A stretch of DNA of 64,000 bases, taken from NCBI GenBank assembly GCA_000004985.1, contig GG738865.1; one strand, given 5' to 3'. Position 1 is the first letter of the stretch. Each line of letters opens with the position of its first letter. This document shows positions 5,252-57,108 of the stretch, piece after piece. The position numbers were made by a program, and so were the translations under genes. This DNA comes from Naegleria gruberi. Lineage: Eukaryota. Under the pieces are notes generated by a model. The model ran no database searches, had not been told where the DNA came from, and saw nothing but the letters and a program-made list of their open reading frames with translations.

Positions 5252-5262
5252 GGCGCCAAAAA
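5252..5262. promoter_or_regulatory. E2F-like element (ggcgccaaaaa = TTTTTGGCGCC on the other strand)
   Basis: Matches the TTTSSCGC consensus on the minus strand. About 180 nt upstream of ATG 5440, in the intergenic spacer. Confidence 0.35.
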
Positions 5263-5439
5263 CATTAAGACCTCAATAAACGCCTCTCCTACTATTTTAC
5301 TTGTTTGAAAAAACAAAACACTCATCATCTTCCATCCTCCGAACACTACCAATATACTCTGTGTTTTGTTCAATAACTTGGATTTTCCATTATTATTATT
5401 AATACAAATAATTAAATAATTTAATATAGTAGCTTAATC

Positions 5440-6057
5440 ATGCCAACACCATCACCAAAAACCAAAACTACGGAATATGAACCTCTCATCTATAGAATTG
5501 TTGCCTTCCTTCAGGTAATTCTGAGTTTGTTCTTCAACTTGACCTTAATTTGCTTAATTCCGTTCATGATTGTTGCCAATCACAGAACCAATCAGACCAA
5601 TACAGAACAATTAGTAGTCTTGGGTATATGTTTAATCATTTTAACGCTCATGTCCATGGCAAAGAATGTGGGCACAGCTTTGGCTTCATGGAAAGGAACC
5701 TTCATGGCCATTCAGGAAGGATTACAGAATCACATTACTCAACAAAATCTCAGAACGAAACGATTTGCCATGATTGGCTGTGGATGTGCCATTGCTCACA
5801 TGATACTTGGCCTCATTCTTTCCTATTTAGGAACTGTCTTTATTGTCATGCTTGTGGATAATTTGGATGATAGAGAATTCGATTGGGGAGTTGATAGTTT
5901 GGAATTTGATAATCCTTTTGCTTTTGTTGTGGCCATTGTCCATTTAATTTTCAATATTGCCGCATTTGGAGTATCAGTGTGGAATCTCATTTTGGTAACT
6001 CGTGAAATTGCCCACTATCACAATGTCAAACCAAGTGGTGAAGAAGAATCCCATTAA
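5440..6057 (+). CDS. Hypothetical 4-TM membrane protein
   Basis: ATG ORF of 205 aa with four clear hydrophobic segments. No family recognised. Confidence 0.6.
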   Translation: MPTPSPKTKTTEYEPLIYRIVAFLQVILSLFFNLTLICLIPFMIVANHRTNQTNTEQLVVLGICLIILTLMSMAKNVGTALASWKGTFMAIQEGLQNHITQQNLRTKRFAMIGCGCAIAHMILGLILSYLGTVFIVMLVDNLDDREFDWGVDSLEFDNPFAFVVAIVHLIFNIAAFGVSVWNLILVTREIAHYHNVKPSGEEESH

Positions 6058-6163
6058 ATAATTCTTAATCTCTTTCCTTTCACTTATTTTCTTATAACTT
6101 TATTGTAAACTCAAAGTGCAATTGCATCAAAGCATGCAAAAACGAAATTAAATAAAGAAAAAA

Positions 6164-7201
6164 ATGTTACATGAAGAAATACCACCTGTTACATCATCTC
6201 TGGAAAATCACAACAATTCATCCCGAATGTTATCCATGATGAAAAATTGTAAACTCACTCCCGAATTGATCTGTGAAGAATTTGAAGGTTTATTGCAACC
6301 TGAGAGAATTTTAAATGTCTACGTGTATGGAAGTAGATTGTATGGTAAATCGGCCGATAATGATTATTATACTATCAATCAAGATTCGGATTTTGATATC
6401 ATGCTTGTTTATGATTTTGATAATTTTCAGGCACCACAAAAGTTGACTTTCCTTTCGAATCAGAAGGAGAATAGAAATTCAGAGTTTTTCCAATTGGAAA
6501 TTCCTCTGTGGATGAAGAGAAGAGAGAGTTTAATTGAAAATAGTGTGGAAAATTCGAATAATGCATCAGAAAATCTCAACGAGATTGAGAAATTCACACC
6601 ACACATGGAGAGGCAAACACTTGAGAATGGTGAAATTATTTACAATTTCAAACAGAAACAATTTGGAGTGGATATGTGCATTTATACAAGAGAGCAATTT
6701 TTGAATCAATTGAAGAAACATCAATTTTCTGAATTGTTGGGTTTGTTTTTGGAGAGAAGCGATGAAGATTATCACAGTTTTATATTGAAAAAGACAGTTG
6801 ACTTTTCTGAAGAGTTTGAAAAGAGTGGAGTTGGAATTCAGTTGAGTAAATTGAGAGCTTCGCTTAGTCAATCAGCGTCTATGGTGTGGAAATGTTGTAG
6901 ATCCATGATGGAACACAGATTGGATTTAGATCCTCCAGAAGTAGAAGTATTCAAAGGCAAAAAGACACTTATTCACACTCTCAGAGTTTATCACTATGGA
7001 ATTCAAATTGCCAAGTTTGGAAAGATTGTGGATTGGCATGAATGTGACAAGTATTATGATGCAATATTCAAACATCCAGAAAAGTACAATTCCTTTAGAG
7101 AATTATCTCAACAATTCAACAAGATTAGACTTGCCTTACATGATGAATTTAGAAATCTTTGTCCAAAAGATGAGACACTAGCAGAGAATGATGAGGAATA
7201 A
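6164..7201 (+). CDS. Putative nucleotidyltransferase-fold protein (Pol-beta superfamily, RlaP/PF10127-like)
   Basis: ATG ORF of 345 aa. The N-terminal segment VYVYGSRLYGKSADN..DSDFDIMLVYD fits the hG[GS]...D.D minimal NTase motif, followed by a helical C-terminal region. Pattern-based call only. Confidence 0.4.
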   Translation: MLHEEIPPVTSSLENHNNSSRMLSMMKNCKLTPELICEEFEGLLQPERILNVYVYGSRLYGKSADNDYYTINQDSDFDIMLVYDFDNFQAPQKLTFLSNQKENRNSEFFQLEIPLWMKRRESLIENSVENSNNASENLNEIEKFTPHMERQTLENGEIIYNFKQKQFGVDMCIYTREQFLNQLKKHQFSELLGLFLERSDEDYHSFILKKTVDFSEEFEKSGVGIQLSKLRASLSQSASMVWKCCRSMMEHRLDLDPPEVEVFKGKKTLIHTLRVYHYGIQIAKFGKIVDWHECDKYYDAIFKHPEKYNSFRELSQQFNKIRLALHDEFRNLCPKDETLAENDEE

Positions 7202-8762: not shown

Positions 8763-10556
8763 TTACATTCTAAAGACACCGAATTGAGTTGGACTTTCAA
8801 TCTTTCCATTTTCACAAGCACTCAAACTCAAACCAAGAATTCTTCTTGTGTCACGTGGATCAATGACACCATCATCCCACAATCTGGCAGATGAGAAGTA
8901 TGGGTGACCTTCATGTTCATACTTGGCTCTAATACCATTCTTGAATTCTTCCATTTCTTGTTCTGGAACTTCCTTACCTAATCTCTTCATACCTTCAACC
9001 TTAACTTGGGAAAGGACGCCAGCAGCTTGTTCACCACCCATGACAGAGATTCTAGAATTTGGCCACATGTACAAGAATCTTGGATTGTAAGCTCTACCAC
9101 ACATACCATAGTTACCAGCACCGAAACTACCACCGAGGAGGACAGTAATCTTTGGAACCTTAGCACAAGCAACAGCCATGACCATCTTGGCACCATCCTT
9201 AGCAATACCATTGGTTTCGTATTGTTTACCAACCATGAAACCAGTAATATTTTGAAGGAACAAGAGTGGAATACCTCTTTGAGAACACAATTCAACAAAG
9301 TGAGCTCCCTTTTGAGCAGATGATGAGAACAAGATACCATTGTTAGCAATAATACCAACTGGCTTACCATAAATCTTGGCAAAACCTGTCACCAATGTAG
9401 TTCCGTATAATTGTTTGAATTCATCAAATCTACTTCCATCGACAATACGAGCAATAATATCTCTGACATCGAATGGTTTTCTACCATCACGTGGAATGAT
9501 ACCTAAAATTTCATCTGGATTATATTTTGGTTCTTCAAAAGATGTTGGAACTTCATTTCTATTACTATTATTCTTTCCCAAAAAGTCAGTCTTTTTCATA
9601 TTGAGATTTGAAATAATTCTTCTTGTCAAATAAATAGCTTCAGTTTCATCATTGGCATAGTAATCAGTGACACCACTTTGTCTACAGTGAACATCAGCAC
9701 CACCCAATTCTTCATCAGTAACTTCTTCACCAGTAGCAGCCTTAACTAATGGTGGACCACCCAAATAAATAGTACCATTACCCTTTACAATAATACTTTC
9801 ATCAGCCATTGCAGGAACATAGGCACCACCTGCAGTACATTTACCCATAACTACAGCAATTTGTGGAATACCTTGAGCACTCATATTGGCTTGATTGTAG
9901 AAAATTCTACCAAAGTGAAGTTTGTCAGGGAAAACATCAGCTTGATGTTCCAAGTTGGCACCACCACTGTCAGCAATGTAAATACATGGCAAGTTATTTT
10001 GTTCAGCAATTTCTTGGGCTCTCAAATGTTTCTTTACAGTGATTGGATAATATGTACCTCCTTTAACAGTTGCATCGTTAGCAACAATTACACACAATTG
10101 ATCGTGAATTTTACCAATACCTGTAATAATACCACCAGCAGGTACTTCATCCTTTCCGTACAATTCATAACCAGCCAATTGACTGAATTCGAGGAAAGGA
10201 GATCCATCATCCAACATTCTATTAATACGATCTCTAACCAAGAGCTTGTTTCTTGAAGTGTGCATCTTTCTATACTTTTCTCCACCTCCCAACTTGATCT
10301 TTTCAACCAAATTCTTCAAATCATTAACTCCTTGAATATTGTGAGTATAATTTGCCTTGTATTCGGCATCATGATGAATATTATTTTCAAGAATATTATG
10401 AGTATTTTCAGCACTTGTAATACTATGATAAAATCTATTATTATTTGATGAAGATCCAGCAGCTAATTGTTTGGCCAAAGAACCACCAACCAAACCAGAA
10501 CGTTGTTGTTGGTTGAGAAGAATGCTAGAAATTTTCTTGGTTGAATTTTTAAGCAT
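8763..10556 (-). CDS. MCCC2: 3-methylcrotonoyl-CoA carboxylase beta subunit (carboxyltransferase), mitochondrial
   Basis: Intronless 597-aa ORF. Carboxyltransferase domains throughout, and a C-terminus ...PTQFGVFRM like animal MCCC2. N-terminal presequence-like region. Confidence 0.92.
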
Positions 10557-13346: not shown

Positions 13347-13360
13347 TTTTCGCGCCAATT
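13347..13360. promoter_or_regulatory. E2F-like element TTTTCGCGCCAATT
   Basis: Exact TTTCGCGC core at 13348..13355, about 55 nt upstream of the kinesin ATG (13410). Confidence 0.45.
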
Positions 13361-13409: not shown

Positions 13410-15455
13410 ATGCCTCCACCTCCTCCTTCAACATCTTCATCATCAACACCAAGAGGAAAGGCAATGCGATCTGCTTTTCTACCACCCGAAACCCCATTAT
13501 CAACCAAAATTAGAAAACCAATCAGGGCCACTCCTTCTTCTTCAACTTCCTCATCGACCAATGGCACTAAGCTACAAGAACAAGAACAGCTACAAGACCA
13601 ATGTATTAAAGTGTACATTAGAATTCGTCCGAACGATGATCATGACCAATTACAAATTGAATTTCTCAACAATTCTTCAATTCAAGTCACGTGTAAAAAT
13701 CAAGAAAAGGCAGATACACCAAAAGTATTCCTATTTGATCAGGTTTTGGATGAAAATGTTTCTCAGCAACAAGTTTTTGATTTGATTGGTGTTCCAGTTG
13801 TTGAAGAACTTCTTCAGGGGTTCAATGCTTCCATTTTAGGTTATGGACATACAGGATCTGGTAAAACATTTACAATGGGAACTAATCTTCATGAGATTGC
13901 AGATTCCTTTGAGAGTGGCAATTTGCCTGCTGCTTGTGGTTTATTGCCACGAATTGTTGAAAGGTTGCTAAACAGGAAGAAAGTGGACGAACAATTAAGC
14001 TGCTCCTTATTTGAAATTTATAATGGAGGAGTTTATGATTTATTTGGAGAGGCCAGCAAAAAGTGTAAGGTCAAGTATTCAAACGGTGTGGATGTTGTGA
14101 CCAATGCTAAAAAGAAGCTTATTCATTCACTGTCTGATCTTTCTTCCATTTCGTCTGGTTTAAAAAGGAGACATCAAAGTGCAACTGGACAAAATCTATC
14201 CTCATCAAGATCACACTGCATCTTTAGATTGTTTATCACAACTGCAGACAATACTGAAAGATGCCTAAACATGGTTGACTTGGCTGGATCTGAACGTCAA
14301 AAAACTGCCAACATTCACGCTGATAAAATGTTACTAGATGAAGCAAATTACATTAATACTTCATTGACAGTTTTGAAAAGATGCATTGAAGCAGTCTATA
14401 ATAATCAATCCAATACTGATAAGAAGACACTAGTTCCATACAGGGAAGATAATCTTGCCTTATTGTTGCATTCAACTTTGGAAGGAAATTCAAAAACTTT
14501 CTTTATTGGAAATATTGGAACTGCAAGTGAATCGATATCAACTTTGAATTATGCACAAACGGCAAGAAAGATTAAAAAGATGACTAGCAAGTTGAGTTCA
14601 ATGTTGAAGAAGAAATCAGGAGGATTGTTTGAAGAGGAAATTGAAAAGTTAAAGAAAGAGTTGGAAGAAACTAAGGGTAAATTGGATGAGGAAAGAGATA
14701 GCAAGACCAAACATATTGAAGAACTCTCACAGAAAATTGCATTATTAGAAACTAAACAACAGGAAGCTAATGAAATTCTCAAACAATCGAATACCATTAT
14801 AGAAGAGATGCAAATCAGAGACGATTCTCTGAAAGAAATTTGCTCAGAAAAAGAAGAAATTATTTCAAATCTCTTTGAAGAATTGTCAAAAGCCAGAAAA
14901 GAAAGCGAGCTCTTGGAGAAGGACAATTCAACATTGAAGAGTGAAAATTCAATTCTTTTGGAAGCAATTGAAAATCAATGTGAAATCATTAGACAACGAG
15001 ATAAGGAACATGATTCAGCTTTCCAAAATTTGAAAGAGCAACTAGACGAATATCAAAAACAGTCATCCTCAAAGACTCTTACAATTCAAACTCTGCGAGA
15101 TGAATTGAAAAAAAAGGACAAAATCATACAGAGAAAATCTTCAACTACTGCAGAACAACTTTATCAGACCATTGAAAATTTACTTAAAACAATTGAAGAT
15201 CAAAAGAAGACAATTCACATGTTTTTGAATGGAACGATGGAAGTTGTGGATATTGATAAGGAAGAAGCTCATGATGGTAATTCATGTGATAGTGATGATG
15301 ATGATGAGAAGGTGATGTCTGATTCTCCAGTTGTGAAATCAAACAAACGAAAGGTAATTTCTCCACTCCAAAATATTGTCTATGAATCAACAGATGAAAA
15401 TAATGAACCAGAATGTAAATATTCAAAATCTGATTTATTAGAATATTTAAAATAA
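13410..15455 (+). CDS. Kinesin-like protein, N-terminal motor plus coiled-coil stalk (divergent/orphan family)
   Basis: Motor motifs IKVYIRIRP, GYGHTGSGKTFTMG (P-loop), SSRSHCIF (switch I) and VDLAGSERQ (switch II), then about 250 aa of coiled coil. Stop TAA at 15453..15455. Confidence 0.9.
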   Translation: MPPPPPSTSSSSTPRGKAMRSAFLPPETPLSTKIRKPIRATPSSSTSSSTNGTKLQEQEQLQDQCIKVYIRIRPNDDHDQLQIEFLNNSSIQVTCKNQEKADTPKVFLFDQVLDENVSQQQVFDLIGVPVVEELLQGFNASILGYGHTGSGKTFTMGTNLHEIADSFESGNLPAACGLLPRIVERLLNRKKVDEQLSCSLFEIYNGGVYDLFGEASKKCKVKYSNGVDVVTNAKKKLIHSLSDLSSISSGLKRRHQSATGQNLSSSRSHCIFRLFITTADNTERCLNMVDLAGSERQKTANIHADKMLLDEANYINTSLTVLKRCIEAVYNNQSNTDKKTLVPYREDNLALLLHSTLEGNSKTFFIGNIGTASESISTLNYAQTARKIKKMTSKLSSMLKKKSGGLFEEEIEKLKKELEETKGKLDEERDSKTKHIEELSQKIALLETKQQEANEILKQSNTIIEEMQIRDDSLKEICSEKEEIISNLFEELSKARKESELLEKDNSTLKSENSILLEAIENQCEIIRQRDKEHDSAFQNLKEQLDEYQKQSSSKTLTIQTLRDELKKKDKIIQRKSSTTAEQLYQTIENLLKTIEDQKKTIHMFLNGTMEVVDIDKEEAHDGNSCDSDDDDEKVMSDSPVVKSNKRKVISPLQNIVYESTDENNEPECKYSKSDLLEYLK

Positions 15456-25602: not shown

Positions 25603-25614
25603 TTGGCGCCAAAA
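25603..25614. promoter_or_regulatory. E2F-like element TTGGCGCCAAAA
   Basis: TTTGGCGC on the minus strand (core 25606..25613). It sits in the 246-nt divergent spacer between the BTB-MATH gene (ATG 25434, minus) and gene 25681 (plus). Confidence 0.4.
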
Positions 25615-31017: not shown

Positions 31018-31030
31018 TTTTTGGCGGGAA
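31018..31030. promoter_or_regulatory. E2F-like element TTTTTGGCGGGAA
   Basis: Matches the canonical TTTGGCGGGAA. About 45 nt upstream of the KIF22 ATG (minus-strand gene). Confidence 0.5.
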
Positions 31031-31461: not shown

Positions 31462-31474
31462 GACGCGCCAAAAT
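31462..31474. promoter_or_regulatory. E2F-like element GACGCGCCAAAAT (TTTGGCGC on the minus strand)
   Basis: Core at 31465..31472, about 120 nt upstream of the H2B ATG. Confidence 0.45.
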
Positions 31475-31593
31475 TTCGATCCTCTTCCAAGTTTACAAAA
31501 AACTGTTATTCATTTTACTCAGAAAAAATAAATTCAACCTTCGTCACAGTCAGCAACAACCAAATCAACAAAGAAAAAAACAACAACATCAAA

Positions 31594-33263: not shown

Positions 33264-34217
33264 TATGAGTTGTTTCTTTTTATTTTCTTTCTCTCTATTG
33301 TGACTGGTAATTTATCTCATATTATATTGCGTCTTTTAAGTCGCTCACCAAATTTGATAATTCAACTCCACTCTCCGCTCTGGAAAACACTTTTTTGATT
33401 GGATAAAACATTCCAGAACCATTAAATGAAACCTTGCACCAAACGGATAACATTTTTATATGGAAGTGTTACAAACAATCATATCTAGCGAGATTTATTG
33501 TTACATTTTGCAATGTAGATGTCTTTCGCTCAACTCTGATTTCTAAATGCAATATTTAATTTAAAAACTAATTGGGTTTTATTTACTCCAAAAAGATGTC
33601 TCACAAAATTTTGATTTACAAGTGGATTTCGAGATAGATTTTAGCTTTGGTCCTGAGAAATTGATTTACTAAGGTACAACTATAGCTTTGAAAAAACACT
33701 TTTCAAAGGTCTGTATCAAAGATCGTTCTCTTGTACCTTTTTGCTCAGACTTTTCTGGAGACAAGAAAACAATGTAGTTGACTGAATACCAATTTGACCT
33801 ATGAGTTGAAGTGGTCCATTGTTCCAGATAACTCTCACAAAATTCAATTATGTTTCACTTTTTGAATGTACTCAGTTGAGAAGTCTATCAACTCTACCAA
33901 TTTAATGGATTTTAATCAGGTCACGTCTAGTTAAGATTGGGCCTTTTATTTAAGCAATTTGGACCATCGAATACATGTGTGTTACTTCCCAGCAAACACT
34001 TTATTGGGATGCACACAGGTCTGTATCGAGGTTTGTCAAATAATTGCCAAATCCTCTCATCTCCCAATTACAACTGTTGCATAACTTGTTCAACCAATCA
34101 AATAATTGCTTATTTACAAATCTCTTCCATTAGAACAATACTAATCAAAACTAACTCGTCCTATTGCGTAGCACTTGTCACCACGTCTTTGTTGGAAGGA
34201 AATTTTGACAAAAAAAA

Positions 34218-36179
34218 ATGTTCAAACAATTCCCAGCAGATGTACTTCCCCATCTGTTTAGTTTTTTCTCTCTGAGAGAAATCTATTATAATCTCCAATT
34301 TGTTAGCAAGGAATGGCTAGAAATTGCCAACGTACCTAATGAATATAACAAAGTACGAAGAAGAAACAATGTTGGTGGAGGAGACAATAGTGATAATGGT
34401 TATCATCAGTCGTGGTCAATTTATTTGGTTTCGTCATTCAGAAGTGGAAAGCAATTTAAAGAAATTAATCGAATGATGAGTGATTTGGAGAGCGATGCTT
34501 CTGATGAGGAAATTTCAAGGGCCATGTGGGATGATCAACATACACAATTGATCTTTTCATGTATTGAAGGAAAGATGGTGCATGGCTTGCATGCTGGTAA
34601 TCCACTTGTTAAAAAGGATGGTATTGGTGAAATGATCAAATCAATGCAATTCCTCTATGGAGTTCATTATGATAAGGAGCTTGTTAAGAGAATTGTTTCA
34701 GATAGTAACTCAATCAAGTCATGTCTCTATGTAGAGAATGAAGAATTTGCTAAAAACTTTCAAGAAAGAGTGGTTGAAAATGGTAGCGGTTTAAGTGATC
34801 TGAAGGAAAAGTTCTATTTTATGGATTTGTGTTATTTGGACTCCTCTTTGAAAAATGTTAGTGATGAGGTATTCATTTACAAAATATTTGAGAGGGTGTT
34901 TTCTTTGGATTTAGATAACGATTGGTCCAATGTATTTCCCTGTATTCGAAAATGCAAATTATTGAAACAGAAACTAGAAAAATGTAATGGAGAAACTATT
35001 AGAAAAATGTTTCAAATTGAAATGGAGATTGCCTTGAAAATGTTACTCAATATTCTCAAGTGGGGTTACCATCTATCTGATTTGAACTTTCTATACTCCT
35101 TTGCAAGTTATTGTAAATTCACACAAAGCCAATCTGAAGAGATAGTGAAATTGTCTGATTCTCTTATTAATGAAATTAATAGAGTTGTATTGATTGAAGA
35201 AGTGGTACTCACTCCAATCATTGAAGATGACTACATCTCCACCAGCATATTGGATCAGTTCAAGAATAACAAACTTATTGAAATGGTCAACCAAAATAAT
35301 GCACATCCACTCGAAGAAATCGAATATAGAAATCTCTATACTAACACATCTTGCTTTTTAAAATTTCTTCATAGAAAATTTTCAATAGGAGAAATGTTTA
35401 GAACAACAATTAACAAAAGAAAAAAGCTACTAGATGCAGAGAATAGATTGAATGGATATTTCGTTTTTTGCATTGTCAACCAGAGAGACATGGAAAAGAG
35501 AGCAAAATTTTTGGAAAAGATTGAACAGGCATTTATTTATGCAACTGAGCTGAGGGATTTCAGAACTGCTTTCTTTTTCTCGACTCTATTGAATAATGCT
35601 TGTGTTTATAGATTACGTAAAACTCGTGAACACGTGGATAGATCAAGTAATTTCAAAAATCTGTTCGAGGAGAGCCAGAAAACAATTTCTTCAGACGGAA
35701 ATTATAGAAAATTATACCAAACTGTTGAAAAATATGCCAAAGAAGCCAATATTCCAATGTAAGTTTGTAATTTCTGGTTAATTCGATTCAACTCATTATG
35801 GTATATTGATAGCCATCTTCCATTGACAAATTTAACGTTTGTTATTGAAGGAAACTCAAATCAAATTACTATTCTCTTTTTGAGTTACAGATTTATAGCA
35901 CAATTTGGAAGATCATTGAGGATACCATCTAAACTTGGTAACTATGAGAGGAATTTATTCGATAAGAAAACTATTAAAATTATTGACAAGAAGGGAGTTA
36001 AGCATTCAATCAAATCATTTTTTGAAGGAGATGATGATACTTCACACATGCATTATGAACTACAAGCTGATCAACAAGTGTTGGAACTTTTTGTTTTCAT
36101 TGCATTTAATTTCCAACTAAAAGAAGATTCAGAGTTGTACAAAATGAGTTTAGAATGTGAACCAAGACAAGCCAAATAA
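34218..36179 (+). CDS. F-box protein with C-terminal RasGEF (CDC25-homology) catalytic domain
   Basis: Exons 34218..35758 and 35813..36179 (54-nt intron GTAAGT..GATAG, phase 2). F-box: FPADVLPHLFSFFSLREIYYNLQFVSKEWLEIA. RasGEF core: RAKFLEKIEQAFIYATELRDFRTAFFFSTLLNNACVYRLRKTREHV..NYRKLY..ANIPIHLPLTNLTFVIEGN..LYKMSLECEPRQ. Confidence 0.8.
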
Positions 36180-36242
36180 TAATATAACTTATTCTTGAAT
36201 TTTTGAAAATAATGATTTTAATATAATTGCTAAAGAAAGATT

Positions 36243-36989
36243 TCATCTCAATAAGTCGAATATTTTCTGTATGGATCCAGAATCAAGATAAATAATTGAA
36301 TTGGATCTTCTGATTCTAACTTCATTGGGTGCGAGTGAGCATTCAGATTGTTTACAAATTGACAAGTAGACATTCTTATCTTTTGGAACAATATTATCAT
36401 TCCTCAAACTCAAATCTCCATTCACAACAAAGATATCTGCCTGTGAATTTTGAACTAATTCAAATCTTGCCTTCAGGTAGGTATTTCTTGTCAGTTGCTG
36501 AATGATGGCTGATTTCATTTCATCTTTGAAATCATCTCCAATGAAGAATTTGATTCTTCTTCTTGTTACAAATCTCCAAATAAAGAAACATCCAACAGCA
36601 GCAGTACACAAGAGCACACTCTTTCCAAGAGTGAAATGAGTCTTGAGAATTGAAAGGAGACCAACTGGCGAAAATTGTGTCAAATTGTCAGATGTTGGTT
36701 TCATTGGTATTTCTGAAATTACTGAAATTTCAGGATTTGATTGGACTATTTCCGGTTTTGCGTTTAGAATTTTCTGAATTCTTTCTCCCAAGTTGGCAAC
36801 AACAGTTTTCAAGCTATTGGTTGACTTCTCCACATTGTCAAGTTTTTCCATTAATGTCTCAAGTTGTTCATCAGGGATTGAAACTGTACTTGAGTTTAGT
36901 TGAGGTTTACTTTTGTTGTTGGAGAAGAAAGAGCCGAGAAATGCACCCACTGTAGAAGTAAGCAGTATACCAACAAGCCGTTGATTCAT
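36243..36989 (-). CDS. Hypothetical two-TM protein
   Basis: 248-aa ATG ORF with an N-terminal anchor, a short coiled segment, a second TM and a C-terminal alpha/beta-looking domain of about 100 aa. No family recognised. It is divergently paired with the GTPase gene. Confidence 0.55.
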   Translation of the reverse strand: MNQRLVGILLTSTVGAFLGSFFSNNKSKPQLNSSTVSIPDEQLETLMEKLDNVEKSTNSLKTVVANLGERIQKILNAKPEIVQSNPEISVISEIPMKPTSDNLTQFSPVGLLSILKTHFTLGKSVLLCTAAVGCFFIWRFVTRRRIKFFIGDDFKDEMKSAIIQQLTRNTYLKARFELVQNSQADIFVVNGDLSLRNDNIVPKDKNVYLSICKQSECSLAPNEVRIRRSNSIIYLDSGSIQKIFDLLR

Positions 36990-37058
36990 TTTTTAATTAT
37001 GTGAATACAGATATATTACATCACGTTTAAGATTTATTAATTGTAGAGTTTAATAAAA

Positions 37059-37070
37059 CGTGACATCACG
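37059..37070. promoter_or_regulatory. Palindrome CGTGAcaTCACG
   Basis: Perfect 5+5 inverted repeat with a 2-nt spacer, in the 254-nt divergent promoter between genes 36989(-) and 37244(+). Confidence 0.4.
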
Positions 37071-37159
37071 GTTCGAGAATTTTTACATTTTGATTAAATT
37101 GTAAACTGCTACAACTGCCTTGGAGCCCATTGTAGGGTATTGTCATTGTAAACTGAAAA

Positions 37160-37171
37160 CGTGAAATCACG
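37160..37171. promoter_or_regulatory. Palindrome CGTGAaaTCACG (second copy)
   Basis: Same half-sites as 37059..37070, 101 nt downstream. A third half-site, ATCACG, lies at 37019..37025. Confidence 0.4.
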
Positions 37172-37243
37172 TATTGTAAACAGCTATTTAAAGAATCAGA
37201 ATGATTTGATAATTCAGTAATATTCAACAAAAAAAACAACAAA

Positions 37244-38412
37244 ATGTTCAATATTCCAAATAATATTACTGATATTCGTTCTTTGTTTACCTATGCAATC
37301 GGAACACTTTCTATTGGCTCCATTGTCGCAGCTGCATCCCTTTCTTACAAACACTTTTTTACATGGTCCTTGAATAAGCAAGACAAAAATCCAAATGTTT
37401 GTGTGTTGAGGCTTGCTGGTTTAACTCCAAGAAAGCTGGAGATTGTGGACAGAGAAACACAAGTAACCTTGTATATTGCAAATGAAACCAAGGAGATTAG
37501 AATAGTGGACAATTTTAAGGGCTCTCTCTTTTTCAAAGTGTATGGTAAATCTGACATTCCATATATTCATATATTACCAATTCGGTCTATGTCAATACTA
37601 GAGATAGACTTGGTGTTTCTGATAGTTTACTTGAAAAGATTGATGCCAAAATGGAAAAATTGCAATATTTCTCTATTTTATTCACTGGAGGAAAAGGTTG
37701 TGGAAAGAGTATGATGATTGTTTGCTTTATTATGTTCTTCATTGAAATGGGATATGAACTTAAAGTTTCTGAACACAGATCACCAAAGGAGGCATTTGTT
37801 ACAGCAGGAACTGATGATCATGTCACAACAAAATTTCAAGTTGCCAGATTGGAGAAGAAGATCAATAACAAAACTATTGTATTAGAATTGATTGACTCTC
37901 CAGGAATTGAAAAGAGTTACAAGGGTCAACCTTGGTATGGAGACATGAAGGAAACATTCAAGAAAATAATGGATGGTCAAGTGAGAGCCAACTCTTGTGT
38001 TTTCGAAGAAAGAAGGCATACTCTCAATTCAACTAATCCAGATGAAAACATTCCAAAACCAATGTTAGCACTTGTTTGTTCAAACCAAGCATCAGTTGAA
38101 TCTGGAAATGCCAACGATCCATTATTGAACGTCCTGACGAAACAATTACAAAAGAGGGCCTTCTCTGTTTCTACCAAAATTGACCAATCTATGGAAAAGG
38201 ATGATAAGAAAACAACAGTGTTAAAGTTCAATAATGGAAAATTTGAAGAAGTTTTGAATGATATTCGTTGTGTTGGTGATCAGAATGATTTACAATTCTT
38301 TTCACTTACAAAAGAAACCTATTTCAAATTTAAAGATTGTGATGATATTATCAAGTTGCACACTGCCAGATTCATTCACAGTATTCTTGATATGTATAAC
38401 AAAAATTGCTAA
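37244..38412 (+). CDS. Membrane-anchored P-loop GTPase (TRAFAC class, AIG1/septin-like; family uncertain)
   Basis: Exons 37244..37544 and 37604..38412 (59-nt intron GTAAAT..TAGAG, phase 1). N-terminal TM LFTYAIGTLSIGSIVAAASL. G1 FTGGKGCGKS, G3 LIDSPG, G4 STKIDQ. Confidence 0.65.
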
Positions 38413-38490
38413 ATGGGATTCCTTTTTTCAATTTTTAAATATTTTGTAAATTATTTTAAAATTTATTAAACATTTATTGTATTTGTTAAA

Positions 38491-38505
38491 TTTTTGGCGC
38501 CAAAA
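38491..38505. promoter_or_regulatory. Palindromic E2F-like element TTTTTGGCGCCAAAA
   Basis: TTTGGCGC reads on both strands (38493..38504). About 50 nt upstream of the TTLL1 ATG. Confidence 0.5.
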
Positions 38506-38554
38506 GTGTTTGAGGTTGTATTACAGTTTTTTAAAAAAAATTAAGAAGAAAAAA

Positions 38555-40092
<1,538 letters not shown>

Positions 40093-40396
40093 AAACATCA
40101 TGTTTAAAAATCTTTACAAAAATGTCCAAGCACTTCTTAACAAGTTGATTCATTACTCTTATCAAGTACTCCACTCCAGTAATTCCTTAATTGTCGGCCA
40201 GCTTAGAGGTTCATTTTCAGTGTGTAGATAACCTCCTTTAGATCTGCAGTAGATCTTTGCTCAATAAGGGCATCAGAAATGAGAGAATAAGGAATAAGGA
40301 TGGACTCCTTTATGGACAATTACGAAAAGATCATCTTTGGTTATTTCACATTGTTAATGTGTTGTTATATGAAATTGTGACAAAATTGTTTTTTAT

Positions 40397-45345: not shown

Positions 45346-46695
45346 ATGTTGGGTCAGTCATCATCTTTAAAAAAAATGGCAACTAAAGTAACCGAAACTC
45401 TTGTTGTGCTTTTGTTGTTATTCTTCGCTACTGCTTCTGGCATTAACGCATCATCACCTGCGGAGCCAGCATTCAAAAGTCAATTACGTTCATGTTTTGA
45501 AGCAAATAGAAATACCGAATGTTTGGCCACACAATCATCTTGGTCTTCATGTGGAGGTTCAGTTTATTCTTCATATCAACTTGCACTCTCCATCTCAATG
45601 AATTGTATGAGAAGTGTCTGTGGAAGTCAAAATAGTTTATGTTGCAATACCTATTGTACAATGTATGGTTTATCTGGATATGATCATTCAGTTTGTTTCA
45701 ATAAGTGTTTCAATGGATATACTGGTTCAGTTGTTGGTGCTGCAACTTTGATGAAAACAATCAAGAGTAGTTTGGATACCAATGTTGATTATGTTCCTCC
45801 TGCCACAGCTCAAAAGAAGGACGATGAAACCAAAGTCTATTGTGATATTCCATGTAATTCAGAATTTGCTTTCTATTCCACAACTGGTAAACAACCAAGT
45901 ATTTTAAATGGTGGTTTGAAGGCATTGTTGGCTTCTAATACCAAGACTAATACTTTGGCTGCTAAGAAAAAGCTCATTTCTTCTTGGTCAACCAAGGTTG
46001 GTTCCTCTAAGCCATCATCCTCATCCTCCTCCTCACGTAAGAGCATCAGCAGCATTAAAAGCATCATTGGAAGAAGTAATAGTGGTTACAACAAGGCCAT
46101 TTCAAAGAGCATCTCAAAATACCTTGGCTTCAAACCAGTTAAACAAATTAATAGTGATCTGGTCTATAAGAGACTTGTTAAATTTGTTTCAAGCATTCCA
46201 AGTCTTGGATACATCTTGAGAGGTATTCGTGATAAGAAAACCAGAACCTACCTTACAAGAGGTTACAAATTCATTCAAGCTGCTAGAAAACAAGTCTATC
46301 CACAAAAAGCATTTGCAATCTATGATGGTAAAGTATTGAATGTGAAAGCCACAGTTCAATTGGGTAATCCAGCATTGGTTAAGCAGAGAAGTACCATTTT
46401 CCCAATTCCATTCAATTCATTGACTCCATCTTCACTTTCAAAGAAATCCTTTTTCAATTCCAGTGTTAAACATAATCAAATCTGTACTGGTACAGCTATT
46501 GCCAAAGTGGAATATTATCGTAGATCTCGTATCACTTGTAAAAAGATCAAGTCATGGATTAGTGGAGCTTCAAAGATTAATCCAAAGAATATTTATCAAG
46601 TCAACAAGTTCCTCTTCCTTGTTTATAATCAATGTAAGAAAGCTAAAGCTACTTGTGTTGTTCCATTTGTTGAAGCAATCAAAACAACTGATTAA
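45346..46695 (+). CDS. Secreted cysteine-rich protein, paralogue A of an unrecognised family
   Basis: 449-aa ORF. An alternative ATG at 45376 gives MATKVTETLVVLLLLFFATASG, a signal peptide. It has a 10-Cys N-module (AFKSQLRSCFEANRNTEC..SSCGG..MNCMRSVCGSQNSLCCNTYC..SVCFNKC), a Ser/Lys-rich variable middle and a 4-Cys C-module (NQIC..C..NQC..C). Confidence 0.8.
   Translation: MLGQSSSLKKMATKVTETLVVLLLLFFATASGINASSPAEPAFKSQLRSCFEANRNTECLATQSSWSSCGGSVYSSYQLALSISMNCMRSVCGSQNSLCCNTYCTMYGLSGYDHSVCFNKCFNGYTGSVVGAATLMKTIKSSLDTNVDYVPPATAQKKDDETKVYCDIPCNSEFAFYSTTGKQPSILNGGLKALLASNTKTNTLAAKKKLISSWSTKVGSSKPSSSSSSSRKSISSIKSIIGRSNSGYNKAISKSISKYLGFKPVKQINSDLVYKRLVKFVSSIPSLGYILRGIRDKKTRTYLTRGYKFIQAARKQVYPQKAFAIYDGKVLNVKATVQLGNPALVKQRSTIFPIPFNSLTPSSLSKKSFFNSSVKHNQICTGTAIAKVEYYRRSRITCKKIKSWISGASKINPKNIYQVNKFLFLVYNQCKKAKATCVVPFVEAIKTTD
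45448..45756. repeat. Arm 1 of an inverted repeat (N-module coding sequence of paralogue A)
   Basis: By hand alignment to the reverse complement of 48699..49010, I found 7 substitutions plus one 3-nt indel region over about 309 nt. Confidence 0.9.
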
Positions 46696-46904
46696 ATTTT
46701 TGTAATTCAATAACTTTTTACAAATATAATATTAATAATATTGAAAAATACTTATTACAATTACAGGTCTGTTACAAAATCTTTTAATGGATAGGAATAG
46801 CATTTTTAAAATACTCGCTCAAACTATATGCAAATTAAACAGTGTACTTTTCACCAAATGTGTATGTGACTCAAAACATCCAACTGTCACACCAGTAAAA
46901 AAAA

Positions 46905-47894
46905 ATGACATTGTCATCCAAACAAATTGTCGTTGTGTTAATTATTGTTGGATTCTGTGTTTCTTACACATTGGCTTCTTCTGCCAGCGAACCAGCATTC
47001 AAAAGTCAATTACGTTCATGTTTTGAAGGAAACAGAAACACAGAATGCATAGTCAATCAAGGAAGCTGGAATTCTTGTGGTCGTTCAGTTTATTCTTCCT
47101 ATCAATTAGCTGTTTCCATTTCAATGAATTGTATGAGAAGTGTTTGTGGTAGTCAAAATGGTTTATGTTGTAATACTTATTGTTCAATGTTTGGTTTATC
47201 TGGAAGTGATCATTCGAATTGTTTCTCCTCATGTTATAATTCATACAGGCCATCGACAAATGGTGGTTCATCTTTTGGTGGAAATATTCCTGCAGCTAGT
47301 GATGCTTTAACTGGTTCTGTATCTTGTTCTATTCCATGCGCTGCTGCTTTCTCCTTCTATGAAAATAAAGTAGCCGAAAGTGTGGCCAAAAAACCAGCAG
47401 AAGTCAAGACATTCAAAACTTTGGTCAAGAATTTACAATCTGGCAAACCAATCAAAAAATCAAATCCTGGCTACACAATCACCTCTGCCAAGACTTTGTC
47501 AACCAGCAGCCCTAGTTCTGCAACCTATTTCACAGCACTTAAACCAAAAGTTGTCCTGAAGGGAAGTGAACATAATCAAGTCTTACGTACCTCTATTGAA
47601 GAAGCTGTTCCAACAAACTTGGACTCGGCTCAATTTTACAATTCTCAAGTGGCATCCAATCAAATTTGTTCCAATTCAATGAAAGATGTTGTAAAGGTTT
47701 CAATTTTGAAGAATACCAAAATTGAATGTTCTAAATTGTTGCAATGGATTAAGAATGATAAGACAATTGCTCCTGAAAATTTGGAAAATGTTTATAATTT
47801 CATGTTGGTTTTGCATCAAAAGTGTTCTGCTTTGCCAAATAGTAAATGTGTCATGCCAAATGTTGGATCCATCAAGCTCACTAACACTAAATAA
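46905..47894 (+). CDS. Secreted cysteine-rich protein, paralogue B
   Basis: 329 aa with signal peptide MTLSSKQIVVVLIIVGFCVSYTLA. It has the same 10-Cys N-module (about 80% nt identity to A) and 4-Cys C-module, with a different middle. Confidence 0.8.
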   Translation: MTLSSKQIVVVLIIVGFCVSYTLASSASEPAFKSQLRSCFEGNRNTECIVNQGSWNSCGRSVYSSYQLAVSISMNCMRSVCGSQNGLCCNTYCSMFGLSGSDHSNCFSSCYNSYRPSTNGGSSFGGNIPAASDALTGSVSCSIPCAAAFSFYENKVAESVAKKPAEVKTFKTLVKNLQSGKPIKKSNPGYTITSAKTLSTSSPSSATYFTALKPKVVLKGSEHNQVLRTSIEEAVPTNLDSAQFYNSQVASNQICSNSMKDVVKVSILKNTKIECSKLLQWIKNDKTIAPENLENVYNFMLVLHQKCSALPNSKCVMPNVGSIKLTNTK

Positions 47895-47969
47895 ATTGTG
47901 GATCTATCAATTAATAACTAATTTTTATTAGAAAGCACCCAAATCATAAATTTCCAAAATAAAATTATT

Positions 47970-49088
47970 TTAAAGAGTGTCAGTATTCAAATTAATTCTT
48001 CTAAACATTGGAACAACACATTGTTTAGACTTCTTTGGAATGAGAGATCTACACTTATTATGAACAATCATCATGAATTTGTAAACAGTAAGCAAATTAT
48101 TTGGTGAAATTTCTGAAACTTCCTTCATCCAACGTTGAATCTTGTTACAATTTACTCTAGATCTCTTATAATAGGTAACTTCAACTGTCTTTCCAGTATT
48201 GGCACAGATTTGATTTTTACCAACTTGGCTGCTTTTCAAAACGGGATTCAAAGGGACAACCTTATCAAGTGAAATGTCAAAAACTTGAAGTCTGTCACGA
48301 GTTACTTGAATAACATTGGAAATCATCTTTTTATCAGTTTTTCCTGATGATTTAGAGGTTGATTTAGTGACCTTTCCATTCTTAATAGTTGTGAGTTTAG
48401 TTTTTTTCACAAAAGACGAAATGAAAAGTTTCTTCTTTTTGCCCAATACTGAAACTCCACCATTTCCACTTGCTGTTCCAGTAGTACTATTTGAACCATT
48501 AATTTGAGAAAGGAGAGTTCTCAAGAAATTTCTTTCCTTTCTTGTTGGTTGTTCATTGGCAAAATAAAAAGCATAAGTAGCATCACATGAAACAGAACAT
48601 TTGACAATGGCTTTATCATCAGTGGTGGCACTTTTTGGAACAAAGTCAGAGTTATCATCGAATGGGATGGAAGCATAAGCAATAGAAGTAGAAATTGGTT
48701 TCATCAAAGTTGCAGCAGCAGAAACAACTGAACCAGTATATCCATTGAAACACTTATTGAAACAAACTGAATGATCATATCCAGATAAACCATACATTGT
48801 ACAATAAGTATTGCAACATAAACTATTTTGACTTCCACAAACACTTCTCATACAATTCATTGAAATGGAGAGTGCAAGTTGATATGAAGAATAAACTGAA
48901 CCTCCACATGAAGACCAAGATGATTGTGTGGCTAAACATTCGGTATTTCTATTTGCTTCAAAACATGAACGTAATTGACTTTTGAATGCTGGTTCCGCTG
49001 GAGATGATGCATTGACAAAAGATGAAGATGTGAGAAGGGCTGCCAACAAGACGAAACATGCCAAAACTAGTGGATTGAATCTTGTCAT
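47970..49088 (-). CDS. Secreted cysteine-rich protein, paralogue C
   Basis: The track start at 49124 is GTG; the first ATG is at 49086..49088 (MTRFNPLVLACFVLLAALLTSSSFVNA). Its N-module is nearly identical to A, its middle is unique and its C-module is related. Confidence 0.8.
   Translation of the reverse strand: MTRFNPLVLACFVLLAALLTSSSFVNASSPAEPAFKSQLRSCFEANRNTECLATQSSWSSCGGSVYSSYQLALSISMNCMRSVCGSQNSLCCNTYCTMYGLSGYDHSVCFNKCFNGYTGSVVSAAATLMKPISTSIAYASIPFDDNSDFVPKSATTDDKAIVKCSVSCDATYAFYFANEQPTRKERNFLRTLLSQINGSNSTTGTASGNGGVSVLGKKKKLFISSFVKKTKLTTIKNGKVTKSTSKSSGKTDKKMISNVIQVTRDRLQVFDISLDKVVPLNPVLKSSQVGKNQICANTGKTVEVTYYKRSRVNCNKIQRWMKEVSEISPNNLLTVYKFMMIVHNKCRSLIPKKSKQCVVPMFRRINLNTDTL
48699..49010. 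repeat. Arm 2 of the inverted repeat (N-module coding sequence of paralogue C)
   Basis: See arm 1. The arms are about 2.9 kb apart in opposite orientation. Confidence 0.9.
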
Positions 49089-49277: not shown

Positions 49278-49290
49278 TTCCCGCCAAAAA
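49278..49290. promoter_or_regulatory. E2F-like element TTCCCGCCAAAAA
   Basis: TTTGGCGGGAA on the minus strand. About 20 nt upstream of ATG 49306, in the divergent spacer shared with paralogue C. Confidence 0.4.
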
Positions 49291-54055: not shown

Positions 54056-55279
54056 TTAAATATTGAGTACACGAAGTTTTTCAGCTTTTGGAACAGTGTG
54101 GATCAAGACACGACCATCATAAGATACAGTACCAAAGGTCCAGCTGTTAGTATTACTCCAACAAAGAGAGTAGACACTTTCTTCATGTTCATCATATGTG
54201 TGAACAAGGTTATCAAACAATTCCTCCTTCTTTGGTTTGGATTTTTCTTCTTCAGATGCTTGTAATTCTTCGTCTAATTCTTGCTCTTTTGCCTTTGATG
54301 AAATTGAGGCAATAGACCATAAATTTACCTTACTGTCAGTACTTCCTGTCAAAATCAATTGATCATATTGTGGATTAAATCTGACTTTGGAAATCCAGTG
54401 TGAATGACCTCCTAAAACCAACAATGGTTCCTTCGTCGAACGAATATCCCAAAACTTTACAAAGCAGTCATCACCACAAGTTGCCAATCTGTACATATGA
54501 TATGGATTGTATTGGACATCCCTAACCATTTGGTCATGAGCAATAAATTCAACATTCTTCTTATTATTCTTTTCTCTCAAGTCAACTTGGATGACCTTTC
54601 CTTGGGCAGCAACAGCAATAATTTCTGAATGATGAGGATCCCAAGCACCAGTTCTTAATCTTCTTCCACCCAAATCATACTTGTTAACAAATTTACATGT
54701 TTTTTCAAATCTAAATTCTCTCAAACATTTTTCATCGATTGAAATTACACGATCACTAGTTCCATTTTGATCCCATAATATTTCGTGTACTCTTTCATTA
54801 TCAAATTGTTTGGCATCTAATTTTGACAGAGTTTCCAAATTATTGGTATTATTACTTTCCAATTCTTCTCCAACATCTGATTGTCCTGCTTGTTCCGAAT
54901 ATGTTGACATTCCGTATAGTGCTGCTTCAAAACCATTTTTAATGGTATTATATGTTGTGAAGAAATATTTTGGTTTTGATGGATGTGGACTAATCGACCA
55001 AACTTCGTGTTGATGTGAAAAAGCAGCTTGACAAAAAACATCATTTTCTTCCTCGTTAAATTCAATAAGATGGACTTCATTGTTGGCATTCAGAGCACAA
55101 GTTCCTACAAGAAATCTATTATTTTGAGTATCACCTTTTACCGCAGCCATACATCTACTCTTGTTTAAACGTTGACCATAGATTGCAGAGGTGTGTCCGT
55201 GACTATCCTGTTGTGATGCTGATGAGGCTGTGTAATCACTGTGTGATCGTAAATGTCCTCTTGTGTTGGATCTTTTCAT
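54056..55279 (-). CDS. EIPR1: EARP/GARP-interacting WD40 protein EIPR1 (TSSC1)
   Basis: Intronless, 407 aa. It aligns with human EIPR1: IYG..RFLVGT, HLIEFNEEEN, VRDVQYNPYHMYRLATCGDDCFVKFWDIRSTKEP, GHSHWISKVRFNPQYDQLILTGSTDSKVNLW, YDEHEESVYSLCWS..SYDGRVLIHTVP. Confidence 0.9.
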   Translation of the reverse strand: MKRSNTRGHLRSHSDYTASSASQQDSHGHTSAIYGQRLNKSRCMAAVKGDTQNNRFLVGTCALNANNEVHLIEFNEEENDVFCQAAFSHQHEVWSISPHPSKPKYFFTTYNTIKNGFEAALYGMSTYSEQAGQSDVGEELESNNTNNLETLSKLDAKQFDNERVHEILWDQNGTSDRVISIDEKCLREFRFEKTCKFVNKYDLGGRRLRTGAWDPHHSEIIAVAAQGKVIQVDLREKNNKKNVEFIAHDQMVRDVQYNPYHMYRLATCGDDCFVKFWDIRSTKEPLLVLGGHSHWISKVRFNPQYDQLILTGSTDSKVNLWSIASISSKAKEQELDEELQASEEEKSKPKKEELFDNLVHTYDEHEESVYSLCWSNTNSWTFGTVSYDGRVLIHTVPKAEKLRVLNI

Positions 55280-55463
55280 TTTTTAATTATAAATATTAAA
55301 TCTTTTAATAATATATCGTTATGATAATCACCTGTCCCATCACGCCAAACAAAATAAAAACACTTTTTAATATTTTAAATGAATATTAAATATTAAATAA
55401 TATTAAATTTAATTTTATTTAAACACAATCATGGTGTAGATTTTCATTTACATATAAAAAGCA

Positions 55464-56633
55464 TTAGTGCTTCTTATAATTATCGAGAATTTCTCTGAGA
55501 TGGAACTTTTTACGAATTATTGTCCTCACATCAGAGTGTTTGTATAATTGTTTCAAAAATGGAATGAGTTTCATCAATTCACGATCTTCCTTATCATCAA
55601 ACCAACTCAAAATTGGTATTCCGTTATCGATTTGATAACCGTATGCTTGTGGTGAGTTATCAACAATGCAAGTCTTGGAAAGATCACGTCCAAGTACTTC
55701 TAAATCCTTCAAATAGTTTCTCTCAACATCAATACAAGAATTTCTAAAAACTCTGTACTTGATGTACTTTCTTTCAGGATCAAGGATTGAAAGCAATTTA
55801 TCAGCATACACACTTTGTGATGCAGTGAAAACAACAACTTCGAAGATTTTTGATACAGCTTCCAAAAACTCAACAAAGTAAGGTCTCTTCCGCACGTAAA
55901 CTGTATATTCAACTCCATGGAAGAGTACAGTAAAGGTAAAGTCAGGATCAGGAATTGGTTCAGTGCTACAATGGACAAGAGTTTCATCAAGATCCAAAAC
56001 TAGGGTTATATCTGGTTGTGATAATTCTTTAGGTGGAAGACAATATTGATGAGGGGAGATCTTAGGTTTTGGTGGAAGGTGGGCAATAAAGTCAAATCTA
56101 TGAAAACGTTAGAACAACAAATGTTTTCATATGAAAATAAAACTTACGGATTGAATTCATCATCATCTTCATACTCAATATCTAATAATTGAGAGTATGA
56201 AAAATCATAAATATCTTCTTCATAGTCTTCTTCCTTTTGCATGACTTTTTCATCATAATTTACACCAAGAGTAATATCTGTGTCAGAGTCACTCAGAGAG
56301 AATCTTCGGGGTGAGAAGAGTTCATCTTCATTGGAGATGGTTGATGTAGAGTCAGAGTAAGAAAGTTTACGAAGAGCTAATGGAGAGGAAGATTTTGGAG
56401 TTGATGATTTTTGTTCTGTCTGATCGGCGTCATTTTCGTTTCCTTTTCGTTCTGTTATGGAGGAACAAAAGTTTGGACGTTATTATTGATTGTATAGAGT
56501 TGTTCATATGTTATCAGCAGATGGTTTGTTGTTGAATAGAGTTAGCATAAATACAGTAAAATAGATAGTTACTTTTTTGAGTTGGTTTGTTAGGAGAGGA
56601 GGTTATTATAAAAGCAGACTTTGGATTAGACAT
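55464..56633 (-). CDS. CTD small phosphatase-like protein (FCP1-homology/NIF domain)
   Basis: Exons 56573..56633, 56148..56451, 55464..56097 (introns of 121 and 50 nt). Catalytic DLDETLVHC (DxDxT), then [64 protein letters not shown]. The first exon is the least certain, but exon 2 has no in-frame ATG near its start. Confidence 0.8.
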
Positions 56634-57096
56634 TTTGGAAATCTAGGTACCTGAACAATGGAATAATTCGGATGATGAAACCGTTACGTAAATCCAATAA
56701 ACAGCAAGGTAGGATTGCTAGGTATTGTTCTGGTATTTTTTTTAATAAATTTTAAAACAATAATTTTTTAAAATAAAATTACTGATTTGCAACGTTTAAT
56801 TTTTTTTAGGAGGGAATATTTGTTGTGACAGGTTTTGAAAAGAATATTTTGAAAATATCGACAAAGAATGACTTTGATATAAATGATTACAAACCGAAGG
56901 TAAGGAATAGTTTTCCAGTTCGACTTCGAGATATTGATTGTTGAAATGATGTGTAATTATTTTGAACATTTCTTTGTGGATTACAAAATTCAATGGAATC
57001 ATTCTCTAATTATGTCTGCTCTCTTCACATCTATTAAGAGAATCAAAAAGACCAATCAATCAAATATATTTTCTGTAGTATTAAAGTGATTGGTTT

Positions 57097-57108
57097 ATGG
57101 CGGGAAAT
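57097..57108. promoter_or_regulatory. E2F-like element ATGGCGGGAAAT (TTTCCCGC on the minus strand)
   Basis: About 45 nt upstream of the MSH1 ATG (57151), in the spacer shared with the CTD phosphatase gene. Confidence 0.45.

Follow-up and report, generated by a model that had tools for sequence, protein, structure and literature searches.

Eight E2F-type elements are found in a gene-dense 64-kb window of the Naegleria gruberi NEG-M genome (scaffold_21:160001-224000; the window is the whole stretch of DNA that was analysed), and every one of them stands in a short promoter. With a probability of about 0.8, judged from sequence, these elements are binding sites of the Naegleria E2F/DP in the short promoters of an E2F-RB regulon. 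An earlier sequence-only reading of the same window had proposed an E2F/DP-RB-type regulon operating through very short promoters, and the proposal is now supported, on computational grounds only, by the presence of the factors, the enrichment of the motif, its conservation among species and its occurrence at PCNA.

Coordinates were anchored on the gene jgi_44525, which a published table places at scaffold_21:214056-215279 on the minus strand, corresponding to window positions 54056-55279; exact protein matches to the window genes include EFC44949.1 (kinesin), EFC45052.1 and EFC44952.1 (H2B). The N. gruberi genes were taken from an open reading frame (ORF) map built on the window, with ORFs trimmed to the first ATG, and the coding fraction so defined is 76%. 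The window as a whole is AT-rich and CpG-poor, as had been described, with 33% G+C and a CpG observed/expected ratio of 0.41. An exhaustive scan of both strands for TTTSSCGC returned seven strand hits at six loci (5253, 13348, 25606, 31465, 38493/38497 and 57100). The sites at 31018 and 49278 read TTTTTGGCGGGAA and are one base off this consensus; they fit TTTSSCGS or, on the other strand, TTCCCGCC, the extended E2F consensus. Scanning the window with TTTSSCGS returned exactly eight loci and no others, namely the six exact TTTSSCGC loci and the two TTTGGCGGGAA sites. The eight sites that the sequence-only reading had picked out by eye are all present as written and none was missed; its statement that each is an exact TTTSSCGC is correct for six loci, while those at 31018 and 49278 need the form TTTSSCGS. 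The sites and their genes are as follows.

5252..5262, minus strand: E2F-type site TTTTTGGCGCC, 177 nt ahead of the gene 5440 start codon and about 130 nt past the stop of the preceding GDPD gene
13347..13360, plus strand: E2F-type site TTTTCGCGCCAATT, 49 nt ahead of the start codon of a kinesin gene (13410-15455)
25603..25614, no strand assigned: near-palindromic site TTGGCGCCAAAA between two divergent genes, upstream of gene 25681 by 66 nt and of the BTB-MATH gene (ATG 25434) by 168 nt
31018..31030, minus strand: extended site, in gene-strand reading TTCCCGCCAAAAA, 40 nt ahead of the start codon of the KIF22-like kinesin 27522-30977 (minus)
31462..31474, plus strand: E2F-type site GACGCGCCAAAAT, 119 nt ahead of the start codon of histone H2B (31594)
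38491..38505, no strand assigned: palindromic site TTTTTGGCGCCAAAA, 50 nt ahead of the start codon of TTLL1 (38556)
49278..49290, plus strand: extended site TTCCCGCCAAAAA, upstream of the start codon of gene 49306 by 15 nt and of a Cys-rich paralogue (ATG 49088, minus) by 189 nt
57097..57108, minus strand: E2F-type site ATTTCCCGCCAT (in gene-strand reading GGCGGGAAAT), 42 nt ahead of the start codon of an MSH1-like MutS gene (57151)

Alignment of the sites gives TTTTGGCGC[C/G]AA, and together they form the classic extended E2F consensus TTTTGGCGCCAA or TTTTGGCGGGAA; TTTSSCGC or its extended forms TTTSGCGCSAAA and TTTGGCGGGAA cover all eight loci. The distribution of the loci is strongly biased towards promoters. 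All eight lie in non-coding DNA no more than 210 nt upstream of an ORF ATG, a compartment that makes up 14% of the window (0.142^8 = about 1.6e-7), and none lies in coding sequence (P = 0.24^8 = 1.1e-5 for a non-coding fraction of 0.24). The nearest ATG is 15-66 nt away at six sites; at H2B the distance is 119 nt, and at gene 5440 it is 177 nt. The claimed restriction to promoters stands, and the claimed range of 20-190 nt gives way to an actual range of 15-202 nt. The same enrichment over coding sequence is seen in related genomes: of the 11 motif loci in 96 kb of their sequence, 9 are intergenic (P = 3e-5). Shuffles of the window that preserve dinucleotides average 1.24 matches to TTTSSCGC and never exceed 4; none of 100 reaches the observed seven. 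The core GGCGC is found at seven loci in the 64 kb, all of them non-coding, and relaxing the motif to the 7-mer TTSSCGC gains two coding matches (TTGCCGC at 5957 and 49324). The motif also emerges from an unguided search. An uncorrected comparison of k-mers between non-coding and coding DNA was swamped by A/T words, and a scan corrected by an order-2 Markov model trained on the same non-coding DNA was used instead; it ranks TTGGCGC, GGCGCCAA, TTTTGGCGC and TTTTGGCGCC first at k = 7, 8, 9 and 10, respectively, with 4-7 occurrences against 0.03-0.2 expected (P 2e-9 to 2e-11).

The cognate factors are present in the genome. NgruE2F, NgruDP, NgruDEL and NgruRB are listed by Medina et al. 2016 (PMC4862756, Figure 2 source data). 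The E2F and DP genes that had been predicted to exist were found as the exact N. gruberi proteins EFC36120.1 (NgruE2F, NAEGRDRAFT_54558) and EFC41842.1 (NgruDP, NAEGRDRAFT_50903), both with conserved recognition helices, and DEL and RB were found as well. Pfam assigns E2F_TDP and E2F_CC-MB domains to E2F, E2F_TDP and DP domains to DP, two E2F_TDP stretches to DEL, and RB_A (6e-45) and RB_B (2e-24) to NgruRB. The recognition helix of NgruE2F is near-identical to that of the human E2F4 chain of the DNA complex 1CF7, and that of NgruDP, KNIRRRVYDALNVLMA, matches the DP2 chain of the same complex. The RRXYD residues are the conserved winged-helix DNA contacts of E2F/DP; because the recognition helices, these established contacts included, are essentially unchanged from those in 1CF7, the same DNA specificity is expected. 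At its C-terminal end NgruE2F reads ...ESGEGVSDLFL, which we take to resemble the human E2F1 pocket-binding motif EGEGIRDLF.

Conservation among related Heterolobosea provides a further line of evidence. It was compared for three of the eight window sites (the others being 5253, 13348, 25606, 49278 and 57100), and all three of these testable sites, at the KIF22-like kinesin, H2B and TTLL1 genes, are kept in N. lovaniensis and N. fowleri at a similar position and in the same orientation; the TTLL1 site is also kept in Willaertia magna. TTTSSCGS occurs only about two times per ~21-kb locus in N. lovaniensis and N. fowleri. The TTL site is found at -37 in N. lovaniensis (CTTTCCCGCCAGC), at -41 in N. 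fowleri (TTTTCCCGCCATT) and at -26 in W. magna (CTTTGGCGCCTTA), where it is the sole GGCGC locus in 21 kb of sequence with 22% G+C that also holds one coding motif hit. The H2B site is found at -122 in N. lovaniensis (TTTTTTGGCGGGTC) and at -136 in N. fowleri, and in the promoter of the KIF22-like kinesin, where the N. gruberi site is at -40, N. lovaniensis has TTCCCGC (-52) and N. fowleri has TTCGCGC (-51). Changes between species are confined to the S positions of the consensus. The flanks of the TTLL1 site cannot be aligned (51% column identity), yet a consensus site is present in every species, with GGCGCC replaced by CCCGCC; such turnover is the pattern to be expected of a site held by the degenerate specificity of a factor. 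The H2B site is part of an invariant ~60-bp block shared by the three Naegleria species, in which the core changes at S positions only.

In animals and plants, the PCNA, histone, MCM and mitotic genes of the E2F regulon have TTTSSCGC elements close to their start sites, and two of these canonical targets carry the motif in the Heterolobosea: PCNA in five species and histone H2B in three Naegleria species. The PCNA promoters of N. gruberi, N. lovaniensis, N. fowleri, W. magna and Acrasis kona (5/5) all contain it. In N. gruberi, CCCGCTCGCGCC stands at -142 and TTGGCGC at -80, and CCCGCTCGCGCC is kept at -220 in N. lovaniensis and at -261 in N. fowleri. The W. magna promoter has two copies of ATTTGGCGC, at -109 and -143, and that of A. 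kona has TTTTGGCGCC at -21, the sole TTTSSCGS in 12.8 kb.

Beside the window sites, Pfam identifies two kinesins, H2B, a ligase of the TTL family, a protein with BTB and MATH domains and a MutS in which domains I, III, IV and V are recognised. The closest solved motor domain to the kinesin 13410-15455 is that of KIF15; an exhaustive protein search for its orthologue gave no match above 34% identity outside its own cluster, the best match being P0270 in the unrelated GCA_002081595.1. The kinesin 27522-30977 (minus) has a C-terminal helix-hairpin-helix, and its best non-Naegleria matches are KIF22 (kinesin-10) proteins that share this architecture. Kennard et al. (preprint 10.1101/2024.01.08.573270) report Naegleria as being without kinesin-4/10; the label kinesin-10/KIF22 given by the sequence-only reading is nevertheless reasonable in view of this domain and these matches. 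The NCBI name of this protein is 'kinesin-6', and its family assignment merits a new look. The start codon of TTLL1 (38556) lies in a first exon that is hidden from the ORF list. The MutS is of bacterial type, scoring 303 bits to bacterial MutS and 189 bits to MSH2, and has a presequence-like N-terminus; it is therefore MSH1-like, as its original label MutS/MSH1 had it. The site at 57097..57108 had been assigned jointly to MutS and the divergent CTD phosphatase, and the first half of this assignment is retained: the start of the NIF phosphatase is at least about 620 nt from 57100, and the site is therefore assigned to MutS alone. The further claim that the flagged genes are mostly cell-cycle, chromosome or cytoskeleton genes is true of the five annotated ones (two kinesins, H2B, MutS and TTLL1) and does not extend to genes 5440, 25681 and 49306, which have no known function. 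Gene 5440 encodes a 205-aa protein (NAEGRDRAFT_67015) with no recognisable relative, gene 25681 is NAEGRDRAFT_48727 and gene 49306 encodes 879 aa; searches of the latter two against Pfam and PDB gave no relative. About 8 of roughly 45 window promoters (~1 in 6) carry a site, and the window scan found none at the genes annotated with 'housekeeping' roles, namely the carboxyltransferase, GDPD, PPR, RGS, RasGEF, Myb, F-box, EIPR1, NIF and formin genes; formin lacks a site although it is an actin-cytoskeleton gene.

A mechanism consistent with these observations can be outlined. A heterodimer of NgruE2F and NgruDP would bind sites of the TTTGGCGCC or TTTGGCGGGAA type at 15-180 nt upstream of start codons, so that E2F/DP, restrained by RB, would act through a single site near the transcription start. 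We infer the binding as well as the direction and timing of regulation. By analogy with animals and plants, E2F/DP would activate its targets on commitment to division, and RB bound to the E2F C-terminus would repress them at other times. The two-domain DEL, which is E2F7/8-like, possibly binds the same sites and may repress, as E2F7/8 and plant DEL do. The predicted regulon would comprise replication and chromatin genes (PCNA and H2B) together with microtubule genes (the two kinesins and TTLL1). Microtubule genes are needed in Naegleria only for mitosis or for building flagella.

Expression data were available from part of Data S2 of the Kennard et al. preprint (10.1101/2024.01.08.573270), with TTLL1 and MutS as the target rows; the RNA-seq experiment behind this table was designed around mitosis, not S phase. 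In these data TTLL1 (jgi_33283) is flagged both as up_in_mitosis (log2 +4.6 at 20 min) and as up_in_differentiation, the rise in differentiation being log2 8.8-9.3, or ~400- to 650-fold. EIPR1, a gene without the motif, is flat in the same part of the table. MCM5, cyclin B and Aurora rise together there after release from the heat-shock block, and at least one replication gene and mitotic genes therefore share one wave in that experiment.

Several observations weigh against an E2F-RB regulon. MutS (jgi_33296), with its site at -42, is flat in both the mitotic-synchrony and the differentiation RNA-seq in the part of Data S2 described above. Three or four of the flagged genes, 5440, 25681 and 49306 among them, are without recognisable function. 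The whole 60-bp H2B block is conserved, so that conservation at this promoter is not specific to the E2F core. Finally, the motif densities come from one window and cannot give genome-wide densities.

Among alternative explanations, the elements might be real, conserved cis-elements that are read by some other GC-box factor or that serve as a general core-promoter or start-site element, with no link to E2F or the cell cycle. This is quite unlikely. The motif at genes 5440, 25681, 49306 and BTB-MATH, which lack a cell-cycle link, would fit such a reading, as would the absence of periodicity of MutS in the partial expression data and the precedent of Cryptosporidium parvum, in which E2F-like motifs lie upstream of most gene clusters with no common expression pattern (PMC3734150). 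However, a general element is hard to reconcile with the roughly five in six window promoters that do without it, and another factor with changes between species that stay within the degeneracy of E2F (GGCGCC to CCCGCC or GGCGGG), with cognate factors whose recognition helices are unchanged, and with sites at PCNA and H2B, both classic E2F targets.

That the pattern is an artefact of composition, with CpG-containing or G+C-rich words purged from coding sequence by codon usage or methylation decay, is very improbable. CpG is depleted throughout the window (0.41) and more so in coding (0.39) than in non-coding DNA (0.51), as this explanation would have it. However, non-coding DNA has less G+C (30.9%) than coding DNA (35.2%), and all sites lie in it nonetheless; composition therefore works against the promoter bias and cannot explain it. 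Furthermore, the order-2 Markov model trained on non-coding DNA expects 0.03-0.2 copies of words that are found 5-7 times, the control word CGCG is not confined to non-coding DNA (two coding and three non-coding loci, two of the latter within E2F-type sites), and orthologous positions keep sites in four other species, one of them with 22% G+C. Remnants of a dispersed repeat or mobile element inserted between genes are scarcely credible: an identical 14-mer, ATTTTTGGCGGGAA, is common to 31018 and 49278, but similarity stops at the motif, no pair of 160-nt flanks shares more, and orthologous positions in other species are occupied by sites. The fungal SBF/MBF element was rejected as a candidate, CGCGAA being present in one of the eight sites (13348) and ACGCGT in none.

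A tentative and rather unlikely extension of the E2F-RB regulon is that E2F/DP, perhaps with a Myb partner acting through the element CCGTTR described below, is not limited to S-phase and mitotic genes. It would then be responsible as well for a share of the burst in which microtubule, basal-body and flagellar genes are expressed in the change from amoeba to flagellate. The suggestion is made because one gene, TTLL1, keeps its site in four species and rises both in mitosis and in differentiation. If true, such a role would be an ancient counterpart of the E2F4/5-multicilin centriole amplification in animal multiciliated cells. A 2025 review (PMC12183034) describes the transcription factors for Naegleria cilia genes as unknown.

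The proposed regulon shares much with the E2F/DP-RB regulon of animals and plants: the consensus, including its extended TTTGGCGGGAA and palindromic TTTGGCGCCAAA forms, the promoter-proximal position, the presence at PCNA and a histone gene, and a factor set of E2F, DP, an E2F7/8-like DEL and RB with near-identical recognition helices. It differs in that Naegleria belongs to the Discoba (Heterolobosea), very distant from both animals and plants, with regulation predicted from sequence; in that its promoters are extremely short (15-66 nt between site and ATG); and in that a TTLL gene of the tubulin polyglutamylase type, induced in flagellate differentiation, is among the putative targets. A second parallel is found in C. 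parvum, for which Oberstaller et al. 2013 (PMC3734150) reported the E2F-like motifs DTTGSCGCCH and TTTGGCGGGAAV. The same two motif forms are found in both organisms, each a gene-dense, A+T-rich protist with very short intergenic regions, and in both the case is made from sequence analysis and the presence of E2F/DP genes. In C. parvum, however, the motif is present at 163 of 200 gene clusters, no RB orthologue was found and there is no common expression profile (PMC3734150), whereas in Naegleria the motif is limited to ~1 in 6 window promoters, the genome has an RB, and those targets that are annotated are genes of replication, chromatin and microtubules. The fungal SBF/MBF elements (CGCGAA, ACGCGT) overlap in their core with that of E2F (GCGSSAAA and CGCGAA; PMC4862756), and the 13348 site, TTTCGCGC, fits both; however, seven of the eight sites (GGCGCC, GGCGGG, CCCGCC and GGCGCG) lack CGCGAA. 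SBF and Whi5 were not found outside fungi in that study (PMC4862756), from which the absence of the factor is taken, no separate search for it having been made in Naegleria.

Full-text literature searches turned up no previous account of E2F sites in the promoters of Naegleria. The presence of E2F, DP and RB is known, and sites for them are hence predictable; what is new is the set of named Naegleria promoters and the support from other species. A concrete pair of factor and motif, with named promoters, is thereby provided where the searched literature shows none for Naegleria, which is related to the pathogen N. fowleri and serves as a model of cell biology in early eukaryotes. The cis-regulatory logic of E2F, beyond the E2F proteins themselves, would extend to the Discoba, and the circuit probably works in this very distant branch, in support of the view that the last common eukaryotic ancestor used E2F/RB at PCNA, histones and such genes. 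The short, defined promoters (40-130 bp) would also be usable for cell-cycle-regulated reporters in Naegleria.

A second element is found beside the E2F-type site in five promoters, at 5-30 nt on its gene-ward side. It reads CCGTTR or AACCGTTA (YAACGG on the other strand) and is Myb/MSA-like. The form CCGTTR occurs in both kinesin promoters and in three Naegleria PCNA promoters, and CTGTTR occurs in those of H2B and MutS; in the kinesin, PCNA and H2B promoters the spacing is 11-25 nt. Its positions are as follows.

13367: CCGTTA, 11 nt gene-ward of the kinesin 13410 site
30999: CCGTTG, 17 nt gene-ward of the site of the KIF22-like kinesin
31503: CTGTTA, gene-ward of the H2B site and invariant in H2B promoters
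57113: CTGTTG, 5 nt gene-ward of the MutS site
PCNA and related loci: second element at about 1385 in L004, about 505 in L006 and about 6325 in L008

The second element is kept in the PCNA, kinesin and H2B orthologues, and CCGTTR has 11 occurrences in the window, 8 of them non-coding. The adjacent CCGTTR hints at a possible Myb partner, the motif being one of low information. It only resembles the elements of the animal DREAM/MuvB-B-Myb system (CDE/CHR) and of the plant MSA system (AACGG, bound by three-repeat Myb at G2/M). A CDE/CHR reading was considered for the KIF22-like kinesin, beside whose site there is a CHR-like TTCAAA (the CHR being TTYGAA), and was set aside, as this word is not kept in N. 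lovaniensis.

Some further features of the H2B promoter may be recorded. The conserved block (window 31440-31520; 9700-9790 in locus L002; 19640-19730 in L004) contains GxCSCGCCAAAA, TTSGATCC, AGTTTACAAAAA and CTGTTA. Upstream of it lies an element GTGGTTCCAT (ATGGAACCAC), two copies of which stand in the intergenic region of N. gruberi. In the N. lovaniensis and N. fowleri loci, H2B and the kinesin are still a divergent pair and TTL and Myb still a convergent one. Relative to the TTLL1-Myb pair, the H2B-kinesin block is inverted in L003 and L004 compared with window 30978-40100, and the intervening genes are GT61 glycosyltransferases in those loci versus RasGEF and genes of unknown function in the window.

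In W. magna, the divergent promoter between an RCC1-like gene and a gene for a 549-aa protein (JBEGDK010000017.1; L009, 535-740; 23% G+C) contains the palindromic TTTGGCGCCAAA and GCGCCAAAAAA, and is likely to be a further member of the same regulon. In the window itself, three tandem paralogues of 449, 329 and 372 aa at 45346-49088 have signal-peptide-like N-termini and a common motif, SSPAEPAFKSQLR, with no Pfam match; the third of them shares the divergent promoter that holds the 49278 site. A CpG lies inside every E2F-type site, in a window whose CpG depletion is stronger in coding than in non-coding DNA, and cytosine methylation, if present in N. gruberi, could modulate these sites. Other words with a bias towards non-coding DNA are ACTGTA/TACAGT (21 occurrences versus 11 in coding sequence), TTTTTGTA (8 versus 0) and TATTTAAT (10 versus 0), which may be splice, branch-point, start-site or polyadenylation signals. 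Lastly, a 'metagenome' in PRJEB11402 (ENA ERZ929261 / Logan ERR1078381) encodes proteins identical to the N. gruberi MutS and formin (L001) and PCNA (L006, L007), and the sample evidently contained N. gruberi or a very close strain.

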